From an uncultured Fimbriimonadales bacterium (GTDB taxonomy: Bacteria > Armatimonadota > Fimbriimonadia > Fimbriimonadales > GBS-DC): a stretch of 64,000 nucleotides of DNA. Shown one piece after another: positions 2,474 to 38,097 of this stretch; the first letter of the stretch is position 1, and every line of letters starts with the position of its first letter. Where the stretch lies: the NCBI GenBank assembly GCA_937992175.1, contig CALKLF010000008.1:7847-71846 (forward strand). Direction: 5' to 3'. The notes beneath the pieces were generated by a model, which was not told the DNA's origin, did not search any database, and worked only from the letters and a program-made list of their open reading frames with translations. A program made the position numbers and the translations under genes.

Positions 2474-4474
2474 GTGAACCCCATCGTTCTCGGTGTCGAC
2501 ACGGGCGGCACTTTCACGGATTTTGTGCTGTGGCGTGAAGGGCGACTGCGCTTGCTGAAGTTGCCCTCCACGCCTCACGCCCCTGAACAGGCGATTCTAG
2601 AGGGCGTTCGGCGGCTGCTGCCCGAACCGCCCCCACAGGGTTTCACCTTGCTGCAAGGCACGACCGTCGGCACGAACCGCATTCTGGAGCGCAAAGGCGC
2701 ACGCACGGCGTTTTTAACCTCCGAGGGCTTTCGCGATTTGCTCTTTCTGGCGCGGCAGGATCGGCAACAGCTCTATTCACTGAAGCCGACGCCGCGCCCA
2801 TGTTTGGCGGAGCGCGCCCTCTGCGCTGAAGTTCCCGAACGCCTCGCCTACGACGGCACGGTGCTGCGCCCGCTGGATGTGAGCGGGCTGAATCGGCTGA
2901 TTCGTCGCTGGAAACGCGAGGGCGTGGAAGCGGTTGCGGTCTGCCTGTTGTTTGCCTACGCGAACCCTGCCCACGAGCGCGCGTTGAAACGCCTGCTGGC
3001 GCCGCATTTTGCTGTGTCGCTCTCCAGCGAGGTTGCGCCGGAGTTCCGCGAGTACGAACGCGCCAGCACCACCTTTTTGAACGCCTATCTGACCCCGCCG
3101 ATGACGCGCTATCTGGAGTCGCTGCAGCGCGAGGCGCGTGGGGCGGGCGCGCTCCGTGTGCTGCTGAGCCACTCCGCTGGGGGGCTGATGGACCTCGGAC
3201 GCGCCTGCGCGCATCCCGTCAGCACGATTCTGTCGGGCCCTGCGGCAGGTGTGATGGGTGCGTGGGCGGTCGGGCGCGGCGTCGGTGCGCACCGACTGCT
3301 CACCCTCGACATCGGCGGCACTTCGACCGATATGGCGCTCATCGACCGTGAGCCGTTGCGCACGCCGCTCGGCGAGATCGAGGGTATGCCGTTGCGCTTG
3401 CCCCGCCTCGATGTGCATACGATTGGCGCGGGCGGCGGCTCCATCGCGCGATTGGACGCAGTAGGTGGCTTGCGCGTCGGACCCGAAAGCGCTGGCGCAG
3501 ACCCCGGTCCCGCCGCCTATGGCAGGGGCGAGCAACCTACGCTCACCGACGCGCACCTGACGCTGGGGCATCTGCTCCCGCAGACTTTCGGCTTCGGAAA
3601 TGTCACGATAGACCCCGACCTGTCGGCAAAGGCGATTGAGCCGCTGGCGCGCGCGCTCGGTCTGTCGCTGCAGGAGGCGGCGGAGGCAATTCTGGAGCAG
3701 GCGCGGGCGAAGATGGCGCGCGGCTTGCGCCGTATCTCGGCAGGGCGCGGCGTCAGCCCCGAAAGCTGTACCCTGATTGCCTTCGGGGGCGCGGGGGGCT
3801 TACATCTGTGCGCGCTGGCGCGCATGCTCGGCATTCGCCAGTGGATTGCGCCTCCCTATCCTGGTGTGCTGTCAGCGTATGGACTGCTGTGGATGGATTG
3901 TGTGCATGAGGCGCGGCGCACTCTCCTGACACCCCTGCCCGAAACGTCCACCCGCCATCTGGAAGGGGCGTTGCTCGAACTGCGCGCTGAGTGCGAGGCG
4001 GCGATGCGGCAGATGGGCGCTCCCGTCGGCGGTTATGAGTTGCATACCTTCGCCGACCTGCGCTACGAAGGGCAGTCCTATGAACTCACCGTCCCCTTCG
4101 AGCCAGAGCGTCCCATGCAGGCGCGTCGGGCGTTCGAGCAGCTCCATCAGACGCGCTACGGATTCGCCATGCCCGACCGCCCCGTCGAGCTGGCGACCCT
4201 GCGCGTGCGCGCGGTTGCGCTGAACCCCAAGCCTGCGGGCGCATGCTGGGAGCCGCCCACGAACTATCTGTCCGACCTGCCCGCCACCACCTCGCTCTGG
4301 CTCGGCGATAAAGCGACAACTGTCCCCGTCCTCTCGCGCGAAGTGCTGCAACCCGACATGCCCATCCCTGCCCCCGCGCTGATTGTGCAGCCCGACTCGA
4401 CCCTGCTCATTGAACCGGGCTGGCAGGCCTATCTGGATTCACGCACAGGCGCGTTAATCGGGCGAAGTTTATAA
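2474..4474 (+). CDS. Hydantoinase/oxoprolinase family protein, A subunit
   Basis: GVDTGGTFTD, GTTVGTN, SGPAAG, DIGGTSTD, VGPESAGADPGPAAY, FGGAGGLH motifs. Confidence 0.92.
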   Translation: MNPIVLGVDTGGTFTDFVLWREGRLRLLKLPSTPHAPEQAILEGVRRLLPEPPPQGFTLLQGTTVGTNRILERKGARTAFLTSEGFRDLLFLARQDRQQLYSLKPTPRPCLAERALCAEVPERLAYDGTVLRPLDVSGLNRLIRRWKREGVEAVAVCLLFAYANPAHERALKRLLAPHFAVSLSSEVAPEFREYERASTTFLNAYLTPPMTRYLESLQREARGAGALRVLLSHSAGGLMDLGRACAHPVSTILSGPAAGVMGAWAVGRGVGAHRLLTLDIGGTSTDMALIDREPLRTPLGEIEGMPLRLPRLDVHTIGAGGGSIARLDAVGGLRVGPESAGADPGPAAYGRGEQPTLTDAHLTLGHLLPQTFGFGNVTIDPDLSAKAIEPLARALGLSLQEAAEAILEQARAKMARGLRRISAGRGVSPESCTLIAFGGAGGLHLCALARMLGIRQWIAPPYPGVLSAYGLLWMDCVHEARRTLLTPLPETSTRHLEGALLELRAECEAAMRQMGAPVGGYELHTFADLRYEGQSYELTVPFEPERPMQARRAFEQLHQTRYGFAMPDRPVELATLRVRAVALNPKPAGACWEPPTNYLSDLPATTSLWLGDKATTVPVLSREVLQPDMPIPAPALIVQPDSTLLIEPGWQAYLDSRTGALIGRSL

Positions 4475-31912: not shown

Positions 31913-32698
31913 ATGCGTTTACAGGGGCGTGTGGCGTGGATTACGGGCGCGGCGCAGGGGCTGGGCGAGGCGTTGGCGCATCGGCTCGCCCAGGAAGGCT
32001 GCATCGGGCTGGCGCTGAGCGATATTCAGACTGAGAAACTAAACGCCGTCGCCCACGCAATTCACGCCCAACATCCCCACTGTGAGACACTGGCTCTGCC
32101 CTGCGATATTCGCCACGAGCAGGAGGTTGTGGACGCCGCCCTGCATATTGACCGACGATTCGGAAAACTGGATCTCCTCGTGGCGAACGCGGGCGTGATC
32201 CACTCCGCCGAGCTGACCGAGATGACGCTGGAGCAGTGGCAGTGGCAGATTGATGTGAACCTGACGGGCTACTTCCTGTGCGCACGCGAGGCGGCGAAGC
32301 TGATGAAGCGCGGGGGCGGCGGCGCGATAATCCAGATTAACTCTAAATCGGGGCTGAAGGGGAGCTACAAGAACTGCGCCTACGCCGCGAGCAAGTTCGG
32401 CGGGATTGGGCTGACCCAGAGCATCGCGATGGACCTAGCCCCCTACGGGATTCGGGTGAACGCGGTGTGTCCGGGCAACCTGCTCGATTCGCCGATGTGG
32501 CAGGGGACGCTGTTTGAGCAGTACGCGCGGAAGTGGGGACTGCCTGAAGAGGCGATTCGTCGCTATTATGAGGCGCAGGTTCCGCTGGGGCGCGGCTGCA
32601 CTTATGACGATGTGGCGAACCTCGTGGTGTTTCTGGCGTCGAGCGAGGCGAGTTATATTACGGGCGAGGCGTATCGGGTGGCAGGAGGGCAGCTATAA
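31913..32698 (+). CDS. srlD: SDR oxidoreductase, sorbitol-6-phosphate 2-dehydrogenase-like
   Basis: TGAAQGLG, VNLTGYFLCAREAA, QINSKSG, YAASKFGG, CPGNLLDSP. Confidence 0.8.
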   Translation: MRLQGRVAWITGAAQGLGEALAHRLAQEGCIGLALSDIQTEKLNAVAHAIHAQHPHCETLALPCDIRHEQEVVDAALHIDRRFGKLDLLVANAGVIHSAELTEMTLEQWQWQIDVNLTGYFLCAREAAKLMKRGGGGAIIQINSKSGLKGSYKNCAYAASKFGGIGLTQSIAMDLAPYGIRVNAVCPGNLLDSPMWQGTLFEQYARKWGLPEEAIRRYYEAQVPLGRGCTYDDVANLVVFLASSEASYITGEAYRVAGGQL

Positions 32699-33160
32699 CG
32701 AACCAGGTTCATCGTGAGCGCACTCCAGATGCACCCAGCCGTAGCCGCGCTGAGGGGTTATCAGTTGACCAAGGCGAATCGGACGAGCGCAGGCGCGGCA
32801 GAAGCCCTGATAGCGCGCCTCAATCACGCGCCGCGCGGCGCGCTGCTGACGGTCGCGACAGCCGACATGCACCCAGTAGCCCCAGCGGGGGTGGCGCGTG
32901 ATGGGGTCGCCTGGGTTAATCGGCGCGCCGCACCCAGTGCATGTCTCCCGATAGCGCGCGGGGATGATGCGCGGCGGCGGTTCGCGTCGCGGAACGAGAC
33001 GCTCAGTCGCCTGCATCAGTTGTCGCAGAGCTTCCTGATAGCCGCGGCGGGGCGCTTGCGCCACAGGCTCAGGCTGCGCGGGAGCGGGGTTCGCGCCGTT
33101 GTTCTCGCGCAAACGCTGATTCTCTTGCCAGCGACGGTTAATCGGTATTGGCTTTGCCAT
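32693..33160 (-). CDS. Tandem CxxC...HxxC zinc-finger protein (last gene of the ubiquitin-like operon)
   Basis: ARYRETCTGC...WVHVGC and ARYQGFCRAC...WVHLEC; starts 3 nt after the E1 stop. Confidence 0.8.
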   Translation of the reverse strand: MAKPIPINRRWQENQRLRENNGANPAPAQPEPVAQAPRRGYQEALRQLMQATERLVPRREPPPRIIPARYRETCTGCGAPINPGDPITRHPRWGYWVHVGCRDRQQRAARRVIEARYQGFCRACARPIRLGQLITPQRGYGWVHLECAHDEPGSL

Positions 33161-33163
33161 CGT

Positions 33164-34609
33164 TCAGCTCCCTCGCGGGGCAGGAATCGGTTTCCCGCGT
33201 CGCGTGCGTCGGCTCTGGCGCGGGAGGTATCCCTGCAGCCCATACAATCCCTGCCCCAACAGGCTGTCGGGATGCTCCGAGCAGAGCAGGCAGTTCGGGT
33301 TGCGCTCGGCGCGGGCAGGAAACGCCTGTTGCTGGAGCAGGTCGTAATAGACATACGGCTGCACAGGCGCGCACCCCGTAGCTAATTTTACCAGCTCCCA
33401 CGCCAGCAGGTTCCCTACAACGCCGTTGAGGAACACTACCTGCGGGTTCGGGATGTGTTCGCCCTGAATATAGCCGCCGCGGATGGAGAGTTCGCGCTGG
33501 TGGGGGGTGAGCTGCTCCTCCACGCTCTGGCGGACGCCTCGCTCCACGCAGGCGATGCAGGCGGTCTCGCCCGGCAGGATGAGCTGCACCTGCCCGCCGC
33601 CCTGCGCAATCCCCCCGTTCTCGCTGCGCACGCCCACACCCGCGTCCAGATAGGGAATCAGGGCGCACATCGCGACGGTGTTCAGATACTGGCGCACGAC
33701 CGCGCTGTCCACCGCACCGACAATCACATCGCAGCCGAGCAGGTGGGCGAGGACCTGGGGCGTGCGGGCGTCGCGAGGGATGGGGACAATCGTGCGCAGT
33801 TCAGGCGGGCGGGCGCGGTTGAGTCGCAGCGCTAACGCACGCACTTTGCGCCATCCCCGCCGCGCCTGCGCATAACTCGCGCCCACCACCCGATTCAGAT
33901 TGCTCAACTCCAGTCGGTCGGGGTCGATCAGCAGAATCTGCCCGACGCCCAACAGCGCGAGCGCGTTCGCAATCTGCGAGCCTAAGCCCCCTGCGCCCAC
34001 CAGCGCGACGCGAAGGCTGCTCAGAATCGCCTGACCCTCCGCCCCAAACGCGCGAATCTGACGGTCGTACACTGTCCGCTCCGCCCAGTCGAGCCAGAGT
34101 AGTTTTTGTCCTGTGCTGTAGCGCGTTTCGAGGGGCGCGCGGAGGACGCGCAGCCGCACAATCGGCGCGAAGCGCTCCCGCTGATAGTCCCAGAACCGCC
34201 CTTCGAAGCTCATGTCGTTGCCGAACACGAGGCTGCCGTGCCGAAACGGGGGCGACATACTTTGCGTGGTCTGGAACTTCAGCAGGTCGCTGCGGTCGTC
34301 AATGGACGAGAAGCGCGGATTCGTACCCCACGGATGGGTATGCGCCTCCAGCAGGCTGTAGCCCTCGCGAGCGCAGCGCACCAGCAGCCCATGCACGAAC
34401 TCTGGGCGCGTTTCTACCAGGCTGTGGGTGCGATGGGCGTAGGCGTTTTCGGGTACGGGTACGACCTCACGCGCGAGGAATATCACGCGCGATTCGCTCT
34501 CCAGCGTCCGGCAGAGCAGGAAACACTTGGTCTCCACGCTACAGTCGGCGAGCAGAACCGCGCGCAGGCGCGCCCAGAGCGCGTGAGGGAGCCGAACCTC
34601 GCCTATCAT
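33164..34609 (-). CDS. JAB/MPN metallopeptidase fused to a ThiF/E1-like adenylyltransferase
   Basis: E...HTHP-x6-S-x2-D JAMM motif; YDRQ, VGAGGLGS, DPDRLELSNLNR, GAVD, CIAC and CLLC Zn sites. Confidence 0.93.
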   Translation of the reverse strand: MIGEVRLPHALWARLRAVLLADCSVETKCFLLCRTLESESRVIFLAREVVPVPENAYAHRTHSLVETRPEFVHGLLVRCAREGYSLLEAHTHPWGTNPRFSSIDDRSDLLKFQTTQSMSPPFRHGSLVFGNDMSFEGRFWDYQRERFAPIVRLRVLRAPLETRYSTGQKLLWLDWAERTVYDRQIRAFGAEGQAILSSLRVALVGAGGLGSQIANALALLGVGQILLIDPDRLELSNLNRVVGASYAQARRGWRKVRALALRLNRARPPELRTIVPIPRDARTPQVLAHLLGCDVIVGAVDSAVVRQYLNTVAMCALIPYLDAGVGVRSENGGIAQGGGQVQLILPGETACIACVERGVRQSVEEQLTPHQRELSIRGGYIQGEHIPNPQVVFLNGVVGNLLAWELVKLATGCAPVQPYVYYDLLQQQAFPARAERNPNCLLCSEHPDSLLGQGLYGLQGYLPRQSRRTRRGKPIPAPRGS

Positions 34610-35121
34610 TGGAATGGATCGTCGTCAATATCGTCCAGATCGTCCAGAGCCACGATGATGAACTCCGTCGGGTTGCGTTTCCATCGTTTGAGCGCGTCGC
34701 GAATCAGTTCACACACGCTGAGCAGGGAGTGTCCCTCCAGCGGATTGGCGGCTGGCTTCCAGCTATGGATATGCAGGCAGCACGCTGTCCAGCCTTTCAT
34801 CTGGGGCGGGGCGTCCGCCAGTTGGCTGGCGCGATTGGGGTCGAAGCGGGTCTCGTTATAGAAGACATGGCTCGGCTTCCTGCCGTCGGCGAGGCGCAGG
34901 TTGTCGTCGACATAGAACCAGTCGGGCGGCGTCTGCGGGTAGTTCGGCGGCAGCAGGATCAGCACATCGGTTCGCTCGTAGTTATAGCCGGGCGGCAGCG
35001 GGAAGTCCTTGACGACCACCCAGCTGCCGTCTTCATCGTCGTAGTCCGCGCTCTTGGTCTGCGAGTAGCGCGCTGCCGCGAGCGCGACCTCATACGCAAT
35101 CCGCTGGAGCCGCGCGTTCAT
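34606..35121 (-). CDS. Prokaryotic E2/UBC-like protein (Prok-E2 family E-like)
   Basis: WVVVKDFPLPPGYN, LPPNYPQTPPDWFY, GWTACCLH..SWKP; ATGA overlap with the JAB-E1 gene. Confidence 0.88.
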   Translation of the reverse strand: MNARLQRIAYEVALAAARYSQTKSADYDDEDGSWVVVKDFPLPPGYNYERTDVLILLPPNYPQTPPDWFYVDDNLRLADGRKPSHVFYNETRFDPNRASQLADAPPQMKGWTACCLHIHSWKPAANPLEGHSLLSVCELIRDALKRWKRNPTEFIIVALDDLDDIDDDPFQ

Positions 35122-35124
35122 GGC

Positions 35125-35319
35125 TTAGAACGCCCCATCCTCCCAGCGCGGCAGTCGCTCGATGGACGGAACCCGCTCCAGAATCTCGTCGGGCGTGGGC
35201 AGCGGCGTATCCAGCACCATCGGGTCGTTCTCCGTGTTGGGCAGCACGGGCTTCAGCGCAATCTCGAACTCCGTATCGTTAATGCGCACCTTCTCCTTGA
35301 CTGTGGTTGCGTTTGCCAT
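35125..35319 (-). CDS. 64-aa putative ubiquitin-like modifier precursor ending RWEDG-AF
   Basis: First gene of the operon, stop 3 nt before the E2 ATG; near-terminal Gly followed by a 2-aa extension. Confidence 0.7.
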   Translation of the reverse strand: MANATTVKEKVRINDTEFEIALKPVLPNTENDPMVLDTPLPTPDEILERVPSIERLPRWEDGAF

Positions 35320-35352
35320 CGTGATAGACCCCCAATGTCGTCGGATAATGCA

Positions 35353-35404
35353 ATTATACCCCAAACGCCCTGGAAAAGTTTCCAGTCTCTCTGCAGGGTA
35401 TAAT
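35353..35404. promoter_or_regulatory. Back-to-back GGTATAAT -10 boxes for the ubiquitin-like operon (minus, 35353-35358) and sdhB (plus, 35399-35404)
   Basis: Perfect TATAAT on each strand in the divergent intergenic region. Confidence 0.65.
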
Positions 35405-36242: not shown

Positions 36243-37078
36243 TGCGCATCTTAGTCACGAACGACGATGGCGTGTACGCCGAGGGGATTCGGGTGCTGGC
36301 GCAGCGGCTGAAGCCCCTCGGCGAGGTCTTTATTGTTGCGCCCGATCGCCCGCGCAGCGCGACGGGGCACTCCATCACGCTGCACAAACCCCTGCGCCTG
36401 CATCGGATTCACCTTCCTGACGGCTCGATTGCCTACGCCACAAACGGCACGCCGACGGACTGCGTAACGCTCGGCGCGCACGCCGTGCTGAACCATCAGG
36501 TCGACCTCGTGGTGTCGGGCATCAACGCCGGTCCGAACCTCGGCTGGGATTTGACCTATTCGGGCACGATAGCGGCGGCGATCGAGGGCGCGATACACGG
36601 GATTAACGCGTTTGCGGTCTCGCTGGCGGCGGAGGAGGTGTTGCCGTTAGCCCGCGCGGAGGCGACGAACGAGCCGTTCCAGAGCGAGCTGCCCCCGATG
36701 CACTACGAGACCGCCGCACTCGCCGCGCTGAACATCGCCCGCCTGCTGCGCGAGCATCCCCTGCCTGAGCATACCTTTCTGAATGTGAATGTGCCGAACC
36801 TGCCGATTCATGAGATCAAGGGCTACCAGATTACCGCGCTTGGCAGGCGACAGTATGCGGATCGAATCGAGTCGCGCGTCGACCCCGCGGGACGCCCTTA
36901 CTACTGGCTCAGCGGCAGCCTTGTGGAGGAACGCGACCAGCCGAGCACGGATGTCTACGCCGTCGCGCACGGCTATGTGTCGATTACCCCCGTGCATCTG
37001 GACTTCACGGCGTACAACCTGCTGGAGCCGATGCAGGAGTGGCTGAGTAAGTTGCGTTTGATTACGGATGGGTGTTAG
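36242..37078 (+). CDS. surE: 5'/3'-nucleotidase SurE
   Basis: MRILVTNDDG, GTPTDC, SGINAGPN, YSGT, VSITP. Confidence 0.97.
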   Translation: MRILVTNDDGVYAEGIRVLAQRLKPLGEVFIVAPDRPRSATGHSITLHKPLRLHRIHLPDGSIAYATNGTPTDCVTLGAHAVLNHQVDLVVSGINAGPNLGWDLTYSGTIAAAIEGAIHGINAFAVSLAAEEVLPLARAEATNEPFQSELPPMHYETAALAALNIARLLREHPLPEHTFLNVNVPNLPIHEIKGYQITALGRRQYADRIESRVDPAGRPYYWLSGSLVEERDQPSTDVYAVAHGYVSITPVHLDFTAYNLLEPMQEWLSKLRLITDGC

Positions 37079-38097
37079 GCATTTTCGGGCGCGCTGGAAA
37101 CGATTCGCGCCTGCTCGAGGAACGCTTCCAACGTGGGCACATCCAGCGCGGCGTCGAAGAGCGTTTCCAAGGCAGGCGCGTCCGAAATCGCCTCAACCAG
37201 TGGCTGCGCCGTCTTCGCGGCGTCCCCGAAACGACGGCTCAAGGCGCGTATAATCGTTTTTCTGAGGGTTTCCACTTGTCCTTCGGCGCGCCCTTCGGCA
37301 AGCCCTTTCTCGCGCCCTTCGGCAAGCCCCTTTTCAATCGCGCGCTTTTCCAGCCGCGACACGAACGGCGTCTTCCGACGACGCTTATACTCCTCCACCA
37401 GCTCGTCTACCTGACGCTCCAAAGTCTCTGGCAGCATAAGTACCCACTCCAGCAGGCGCAAAATCTGCGCCTGCTGATTATGAGTATACCCGTACTCCAT
37501 CATCAGCGCAATCAGCCGCTTGCGCGCCTCGAATCGGGCGTCTATGTTCCCCTCTGTTTCCATCGCCTTTCGAAACGCCAGCAACATCAGCGCAGCAGGG
37601 TTTCTACGCTTCGCCTGCTCAGTCAGGTATCGCTCGCCCATCTCCAGCAGCTTCACCGTGTGGAACTGGAAGTCGAGGCGCGTGCCTGGCAGTTCGCGCA
37701 CATAGCGGTCAGGACGCCAGTTCGGGTTCTTGTCGGCGTAAATCACGATACAGACGATGTCGGTGCGGAGTTCCAGCCACGCGCGGGCGTAATAGGCGAA
37801 TACGCGCTCTTCCATCCTGGCTGCAAACTGCGACTGAGCCTCCAGGTGAATGTAGACGCCGCGCGGTTCGCCGTTTTTGAGCCACACGCGAGCAAGGCGG
37901 TCGGGGTAAAGCTTGCCCGTTTCGCTTTGCGGAGAGAGGCGTCGCAGCTCGGCGTCCACAAACTGGGGTCTGCGCTTCCAGTCAATCATCGCATAGAGTT
38001 CATGCAGGATCAACTTGATGAGTTGGCGGAAGAAGACCGTGATAAACTCCTTCCATGGGCTGTCGTAGTCTGCGCGCGATTGCTCCCGCGACTCCAT
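37075..38097 (-). CDS. Rpn-like / PD-(D/E)XK putative transposase-nuclease family protein (paralogue 2)
   Basis: DYDSPWKEFITVFF, HLEAQ, GLAEGREKGLAEG repeat; closely similar to 4513-5529. Confidence 0.82.
   Translation of the reverse strand: MESREQSRADYDSPWKEFITVFFRQLIKLILHELYAMIDWKRRPQFVDAELRRLSPQSETGKLYPDRLARVWLKNGEPRGVYIHLEAQSQFAARMEERVFAYYARAWLELRTDIVCIVIYADKNPNWRPDRYVRELPGTRLDFQFHTVKLLEMGERYLTEQAKRRNPAALMLLAFRKAMETEGNIDARFEARKRLIALMMEYGYTHNQQAQILRLLEWVLMLPETLERQVDELVEEYKRRRKTPFVSRLEKRAIEKGLAEGREKGLAEGRAEGQVETLRKTIIRALSRRFGDAAKTAQPLVEAISDAPALETLFDAALDVPTLEAFLEQARIVSSAPENA

Follow-up and report, generated by a model that had tools for sequence, protein, structure and literature searches.

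The stretch of DNA analysed here (64,000 nucleotides, hereafter the window) contains a cassette of four genes that lie head to tail on the minus strand and encode a very small protein, here called the tag, an E2-like protein, a JAB-E1 fusion and a protein with two zinc ribbons. The genes and the C-terminal features of the tag are as follows.

35125..35319, minus strand: mini-tag gene, 64 amino acids plus stop, taken from the open reading frame and the DNA; occupies the BubA (Ubl) position in the cassette
35134..35136, minus strand: encodes Gly62, at which the mature protein is proposed to end (WEDG); this residue is invariant in all 30 alignment rows and all 31 locus sequences
35128..35133, minus strand: encodes Ala63-Phe64, the cap that JAB is proposed to remove; residues after the Gly are variable and number 0 to 4
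34606..35121, minus strand: E2-like protein (BubB-like), 171 amino acids, matching PF14462 (Prok-E2_E) at 7.9e-14, above cut-off
33164..34609, minus strand: JAB/JAMM peptidase-E1 (ThiF) fusion, BubCD-like, 481 amino acids, matching ThiF at 1.3e-40 and Prok-JAB at 8.9e-4, the latter below cut-off
32693..33160, minus strand: fourth protein, two zinc ribbons, 155 amino acids, no significant family; occupies the BubE (DUF6527) position

The tag reading frame runs from 35319 down to 35128 and closes with a TAA stop at 35127-35125 (minus strand). A longer open reading frame (35125..35364, minus strand) has a TTG start; the ATG at 35319 gives the 64-amino-acid protein, and in the alignment conservation among the homologues begins with the ATG form and does not reach back to the upstream TTG. 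E2 starts 3 nt past the tag stop and in the same frame, with TAA-GCC between the two genes. The cassette is flanked on one side by genes for an SDR, YbjQ, an MscS-type channel and Uma2, and on the other by genes for an SdhB-like protein and SurE. Neither a CapW nor a CapH/CapP regulator adjoins it, and a sequence scan of the cassette for promoters and terminators returned counts no higher than in shuffled sequence. Elsewhere in the window, a 340-amino-acid open reading frame (37075-38097, minus strand) is located between surE and a pyridine-nucleotide-disulfide-oxidoreductase-like gene. It matches no Pfam family at E <= 1e-5, and the opposite strand carries a long open reading frame there that is probably spurious.

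The tag family and its C-terminus

The 64-amino-acid open reading frame had been claimed in an earlier sequence-only reading of this DNA. It is present as quoted and is under strong purifying selection, with a median dN/dS of 0.08, a mean dS of 0.78 and a mean dN of 0.07 across 190 pairs of 20 distinct DNA versions. This sample comprised the window and 20 of the 32 loci described below, compared over an indel-free core of 56 codons; the remaining 12 loci were left out because of indels in the linker. In a word-indexed search, 29 of 29 candidate homologues matched at E <= 0.01, all of them 73-94% identical. An exhaustive HMMER search of 1.84 billion cluster representatives with the tag profile returned 8 matches at E <= 0.001, all 55-85 amino acids long, among them two (P0030 and P0034) that are without the C-terminal half and appear to be frameshifted. 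The tag family is thus real but very narrow. In two RNA libraries, assembled contigs about 96% identical to the window span the tag and continue into E2, a weak hint that the two genes are co-transcribed in relatives; these contigs may reflect DNA carry-over, and their source is relatives and not the window strain.

Conservation in the tag extends to its very end. Gly62, W59, D61, L56, P51, V11, N14, E19, I20, P24 and N31 are invariant in 30 of 30 rows, and P57 is kept in at least 90% of them. In 31 of 31 locus-derived tags, W[EQ]DG followed by two to four variable residues forms the C-terminal end. The caps found at these loci are AF, AY, AN, AC, AR, AH, TC, GC, GY and IG (two residues) and ATE, APA, ASF, GLR, GRA, ATKR, GANA and GGDA (three or four residues), and further cluster representatives add MH, AQ, GR, LQA, GAH, ATNR and GENA. 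At the locus with the most distant E2 (L046), the open reading frame upstream of E2 ends in NRPPWEDG and then a stop, leaving zero cap residues. The sequence-only reading had proposed WEDG|AF as the cut site and had named an invariant Gly among homologues as one of its checks; the alignment provides that Gly, with 0 to 4 varying residues beyond it. A single cut after the invariant Gly fits every cap seen, which supports the proposed site. A cut after a second Gly was rejected because most members of the family are without one.

Relation to Type I Bub systems

Bub conjugation systems were described in 2024 by Ye, Gong, Chambers & Corbett (10.1101/2024.11.21.623953) and by Gong et al. (10.1101/2024.11.21.623966). 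As described there, a Type I Bub operon encodes a Ubl that is usually fused to E2 (BubAB), a JAB-E1 protein (BubCD) and a DUF6527 serine protease (BubE) (10.1101/2024.11.21.623953; 10.1101/2024.11.21.623966). The Bub E1 is described as having an invariant Tyr in its crossover loop and the E2 a Ser-x-His motif plus an Asp (10.1101/2024.11.21.623953; 10.1101/2024.11.21.623966), and the pathway as running via oxyesters with no catalytic cysteines (10.1101/2024.11.21.623953). BubCD cleaves BubAB directly after a conserved Gly, BubA Gly229 (10.1101/2024.11.21.623953), and the authors state that "all Bub operons encode BubE" (Ye et al., 10.1101/2024.11.21.623953). The operons of Table S1 contain DUF6527 and come from Millman et al. 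2022; among its Type I Bub rows, at least 31 have split Ubl and E2 genes and at least two, from Burkholderia cepacia, are marked "Ub missing" (PMC11601596). The terms "Armatimonad", "Fimbriimonad", "Chthonomonas" and "HR15" are absent from the whole Table S1 spreadsheet (PMC11601596). In full-text literature outside subscription journals, the terms BubCD, BubA and DUF6527 were found only in these two Corbett-lab preprints.

Because the best solved relatives of its enzymes are Citrobacter BubB and BubCD, the cassette is, as judged by sequence, a variant of Type I Bub ("6E.1"), an assignment that the sequence-only reading had not made. The PDB matches of the E2 are chains of Citrobacter BubB only (7.3e-5 from the sequence alone, 3.4e-8 from the family profile), and the best PDB match of JAB-E1 is Citrobacter BubCD (2.6e-24 over residues 15-406). 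The gene order (a gene in the Ubl position, E2, JAB-E1 fusion) is also that of Type I Bub. JAB-E1 shares with BubCD both the JAMM residues and the crossover-loop Tyr: GGYIQG aligned to RGYITG of BubCD, and across 42 rows Y380 (codon 33470-33472, minus strand) is invariant, E26, H90, H92 and D104 are kept in at least 90%, and the ATP-site glycines are conserved. The JAB-E1 neighbour that the sequence-only reading had assumed is therefore present with its JAMM residues, and an E2 adjoins it.

The E2 is of the Prok-E2_E type and has the Asp (D67) and His (H117) of the BubB site; D67 aligns with BubB D299, and the proposed active-site residues are D67, C115 (codon 34777-34779, minus strand) and H117. 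The nucleophile position differs from that of BubB, which has Ser: the E2 motif is C-L-H in 19 of 21 rows and S-L-H in the other two (P0067 and P0068). The E2 of L046 likewise has Ser, and the E2 of a Thermoflexus locus (L045) has Cys. C115 would correspond to BubB S333 by motif and spacing rather than by a residue-level structural alignment, and this equivalence is supported by S-L-H in P0067, P0068 and L046 and by W-S-R-H in the canonical loci L067-L069.

Two further parts of the cassette depart from Type I Bub. Tags are 61-77 amino acids long and match no Ubl family, whereas BubA consists of one to three Multi_ubiq beta-grasp domains, and the cassette has no DUF6527 BubE but carries the two-zinc-ribbon protein in that place. 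This fourth protein has no detectable similarity to DUF6527. It starts with a near-invariant M(A)KPIPxNRRW, which is followed by an acidic linker that varies and by two ARY..C..C...WVH..C repeats. It is found downstream of JAB-E1 at 37-41% identity in three genomes (G355, G400 and G350), and in 15 of 24 loci with JAB-E1, disrupted in one (L021). Its C-termini vary, and the cassette holds no second candidate with a conserved Gly end. The JAB-E1 of the window ends in RRGKPIPAPRGS, so that a KPIP motif closes JAB-E1 and opens the fourth protein; the JAB-E1 alignment consensus also has PxP at its C-terminal end. The repeated KPIP could be a common docking motif or an acceptor site.

Canonical split Bub loci of the same phylum (L067-L069) share the four-position layout. 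Their JAB-E1 proteins match the profile of the window family at 1e-82 to 1e-92 and their E2 proteins match the corresponding profile at 1e-9 to 1e-12. Their Ubls end in TEG or TDG followed by 0, 12 or 8 residues, and thus resemble the tag in ending with an acidic residue and Gly beneath a cap, here of 0-12 residues. They differ in that their Ubl is a Multi_ubiq beta-grasp, their E2 carries W-S-R-H and DUF6527 follows JAB-E1. A tree of JAB-E1 proteins with ThiF-only proteins as outgroup places every row from a mini-tag cassette in one clade (SH-aLRT 99) and leaves the canonical rows outside. The label of this clade is partly defined by identity, so its monophyly is not independent evidence. The deep forks of this tree give no support for the mini-tag clade having arisen either inside or outside canonical Bub.

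The shared frame of tag and E2 in the window suggested a recent nonsense split of a BubAB fusion. We rejected this candidate because junctions vary among loci, no fused form was found and split genes are known in Type I Bub. With E2 starts projected from the HMM alignment, the junctions of 31 loci lie in varying frames and comprise 3-nt gaps (12 loci), a 4-nt gap (1), overlaps of 1 or 4 nt (7) and distances of 30-84 nt (11). A length-unrestricted profile search of the 1.84 billion representatives returned no tag-E2 fusion.

A scan with the E2 profile, taking one genome per species, gave 32 loci, 29 of which are assigned to Armatimonadota/Armatimonadetes or Fimbriimonadales, two to a "bacterium" (L022 and L034) and one to Thermoflexus. 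The tag HMM matches the open reading frame directly upstream of E2 in 31 of these; the tag of the 32nd (L046) was recognised by eye. JAB-E1 is present in 24 of the 32 loci, and the other 8 (L020, L024, L027, L029, L030, L031, L043 and L044) have tag and E2 alone. Six genomes hold a full cassette together with an orphan tag/E2 pair, which suggests that one E1 serves two such pairs. At L013 and L031, an unrelated convergent gene lies 3' of E2. The neighbourhoods differ among the window, G400 and G350, indicating that the cassette moves. Upstream of the cassette at L046 lie a large P-loop ATPase-like open reading frame and another that by eye looked plasmid- or conjugation-related (976-2769 and 2672-3625, plus strand), and a trypsin-like protease open reading frame lies downstream. 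Among 401 sampled genomes of the phylum, the tag profile matches strongly in four (E <= 2.7e-17), all of them in the family of the window, and three more matches (E 0.001-0.007) are likely due to chance. Multi_ubiq occurs in 16 of the 401 and in none of three other genomes of the window's family. In the genome of the window (a Fimbriimonadales MAG of the phylum Armatimonadota, 2.8 Mb, 93.8% complete), Multi_ubiq has no match at E <= 0.1 and DUF6527 none above cut-off, its best match (E 0.094) lying on another contig.

Fold of the tag and alternative roles

Neither the tag nor 8 relatives (9 members scanned in all) match any Pfam family, PF14452 (Multi_ubiq) included, with E values up to 10 allowed. 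The tag, E2 and fourth protein have no match in NCBIfam or PADLOC, the ESM Atlas gave no usable match for the tag, and a PDB sequence search with the tag profile returned only rows at chance level (best E 0.068). The AlphaFold2 model of the tag built from the 30-row alignment (mean pLDDT 63.6, pTM 0.21) has strands at residues 7-13 and 16-22, a helix of seven residues at 43-49 and coil elsewhere, in agreement with the hairpin, Pro-rich spacer and helix start described from the sequence. It predicts no ordinary ThiS, MoaD or ubiquitin fold, as the claim of something less than a full beta-grasp had anticipated. Foldseek found no PDB match to this low-confidence model at E <= 0.001 (best E 3.2). 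As a control, a 12-row Multi_ubiq alignment gave a model with the beta-grasp element order (pLDDT 83.3, pTM 0.70) and BubA(155-229) in 9ea8_B as its best PDB match (TM 0.86). The method is thus able to see a beta-grasp from a shallower alignment, and it sees none in the tag. At the same time, the tag alignment is itself shallow (30 rows, hhalign Neff about 1.9), so the low AlphaFold2 confidence could reflect a shortcoming of the method and not true disorder. On the basis of this low-confidence model, we conclude that the tag is probably not a full beta-grasp. Prediction of a complex of JAB-E1 with tag residues 1-62, a check named in the sequence-only reading, gave scores of 0.48, 0.07 and 0.29, with a median under the 0.32 mark and without control runs, which speaks neither for nor against binding.

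Between hairpin and helix lies a segment rich in Pro and Thr, whose length and composition differ from one sub-clade to another. Within the main sub-clade, this "linker" is as strongly conserved as the rest of the tag, which fits a folded or tightly bound segment equally well as a flexible spacer. By eye, the tag hairpin and PSIERL...EDG resemble the first hairpin and PGVERF...TEG of canonical Ubls, a likeness that is not significant. A vestigial beta-grasp that has lost strands 3-5 would fit this pattern, without statistical support.

One alternative is that the tag does fold as an entire beta-grasp Ubl that is compact, strongly diverged and of the size of ThiS (66 amino acids), and that predictors miss this; the mechanism would otherwise be unchanged. 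A family as small and Pro-rich as this one could escape structure and profile methods, and the shallow alignment, the Ubl position of the tag in a Bub-type cassette and the by-eye likeness to canonical C-termini are all compatible with such a protein. Its hairpin, KVRINDTEFEI, also resembles the Multi_ubiq start YKIRIDKTHHEV; this is the sole match found by hhalign, which aligned the tag with 12 Multi_ubiq domains of the same phylum at 6.6% probability over 12 columns (KVRINDTEFEIA against KIRIDKTHHEVA). We nevertheless consider a complete beta-grasp unlikely. AlphaFold2 places no strand past residue 22 where the 12-row Multi_ubiq alignment folds confidently, 8 of 62 residues are prolines, the segment between hairpin and helix is variable between sub-clades, and no Pfam Ubl family was found in the 9 members scanned.

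Alternatively, the tag may never be transferred, and may act instead as a regulator, chaperone or inhibitor (for example, a pseudo-substrate) of E2 or JAB-E1, the true substrate being another protein. Bacterial E1 and E2 enzymes are described as able to act on non-Ubl substrates, and in type II CBASS Cap2 conjugates the CD-NTase (Ye et al., 10.1101/2024.11.21.623953). The tag always accompanies E2, even in the loci without JAB-E1, and the conserved N-terminal motif of the fourth gene product would suit such an arrangement as well. However, an invariant terminal Gly beneath a variable cap is, by sequence pattern, the mark of an activated C-terminus, the homologue at L046 stops exactly at this Gly, and no other protein of the cassette has a conserved Gly end; we regard an untransferred tag as very improbable.

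Least probable of all is that the C-terminus of the tag is adenylated for a purpose other than tagging, as in sulfur carriers (QbsE/QbsD, CysO/Mec) or MccA/MccB-type peptide precursors. QbsE has a Gly followed by a two-residue cap that a JAMM peptidase removes, the arrangement proposed for the tag, and the E1 domain matches MoeB, ThiF and MccB in the PDB as well as, below cut-offs, the MoeB/ThiF models of NCBIfam, but both enzymes match conjugating Bub proteins best, all 32 loci pair the tag with an E2 whose Asp/Cys/His triad is conserved, and the cassette contains no rhodanese, sulfur-transfer, biosynthetic or export genes. To our knowledge, sulfur-carrier and microcin pathways need no E2.

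A proposed tagging pathway and its significance

The mini-tag reading is supported by this computational analysis: every refuting condition of the sequence-only reading that is open to computation (Gly conservation, an ordinary fold, a frame that is not a gene) turned out in its favour. We consider it probable, on the sequence and model evidence together, that the 64-amino-acid protein is the modifier, equivalent to BubA, of a Bub-type conjugation cassette that occurs almost only in Fimbriimonadales. For this tagging pathway, we infer all chemical steps and the target. The JAB/JAMM domain would trim the precursor after Gly62 and remove Ala-Phe, by analogy with the cleavage of BubAB after its conserved Gly, which in BubA is likewise followed by an extension. 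The ThiF-like E1 domain would then adenylate Gly62, and the acyl group would move to the crossover-loop Tyr380, as in BubCD, and from there to Cys115 of the E2, at the place of the catalytic Ser of BubB. The final acceptor would be an amine on a target protein. The tag would retain an N-terminal hairpin, a short helix and the LPRWEDG tail, joined by the Pro/Thr-rich linker, and because this would be an incomplete beta-grasp, recognition by E1 and JAB would occur mainly via tail and hairpin. The JAB domain may double as a deconjugase, since BubE is missing and the uncapped tag of L046 keeps its JAB-E1 partner.

A more specific form of the modifier reading, which we put forward tentatively as one possibility, is that the tag is a Pup-like, mostly disordered modifier of 62 residues that is activated by E1 and E2, folds only on its enzymes via the hairpin and LPRWEDG, and passes through a relay of Tyr oxyester and Cys thioester. 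Pup and UBact end in GGQ or GGE and are attached by a glutamine-synthetase-like ligase (PafA/Dop). The tag resembles them in its size (about 60-64 residues), in being predicted to be largely unstructured alone and in the proposed C-terminal processing step. It differs in ending with WEDG-AF rather than GGQ or GGE, in the proposed E1 adenylation and E2, and in that the cassette has no PafA/Dop gene. Elsewhere in the same genome, two proteins of the Pup-ligase family (PafA/Dop-like) match at E 3e-158 and 3e-126; their genes lie on contigs C83:7170-8525 and C108:11147-12523 (L071 and L072), and the cassette lies on contig C8. To judge from these genes, the organism may run Pup/UBact-type tagging besides the E1/E2 cassette.

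The modifier reading also invites comparison with type II CBASS, in which, as described, Cap2/Cap3 direct E1/E2 and JAB activities to the C-terminus of a protein other than a beta-grasp Ubl (10.1101/2024.11.21.623953). The E1 domain of JAB-E1 matches the E1-E2 models of PADLOC at 5e-19 and weaker. In Cap2/Cap3, the substrate is the large CD-NTase, E2 is joined to E1 and JAB stands alone, whereas in the window the proposed substrate is a dedicated mini-protein, E2 stands alone and JAB is the fusion partner of E1.

The 2024 description presents Bub systems as using beta-grasp Ubls and doing without catalytic cysteines, and its catalogue took DUF6527 as the seed (10.1101/2024.11.21.623953; PMC11601596); the mini-tag clade would be missed by such a catalogue. 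It is possible that overlooked small tags explain the Type I Bub rows marked "Ub missing" (PMC11601596). Three parts that were supposed to be constant appear to differ together in this clade, namely the nucleophile of the E2, the protease BubE and, probably, the fold of the Ubl, whereas the core of JAB-E1 is kept along with its Tyr. If the mini-tag is truly conjugated, then recognition by E1, E2 and JAB would be reducible to a hairpin and a tail, which would bear on the relation of ubiquitin-type tagging to Pup-type tagging and to CBASS-type C-terminal conjugation. In that case, the naturally occurring Ser and Cys variants of a single E2 family could also be paired to compare oxyester with thioester chemistry. 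Should the tag prove to be a disordered modifier, it would be the smallest and least ubiquitin-like substrate of dedicated E1-E2 tagging, and its cassette would offer a snapshot of Ser/Cys interchange in the evolution of E2 enzymes.
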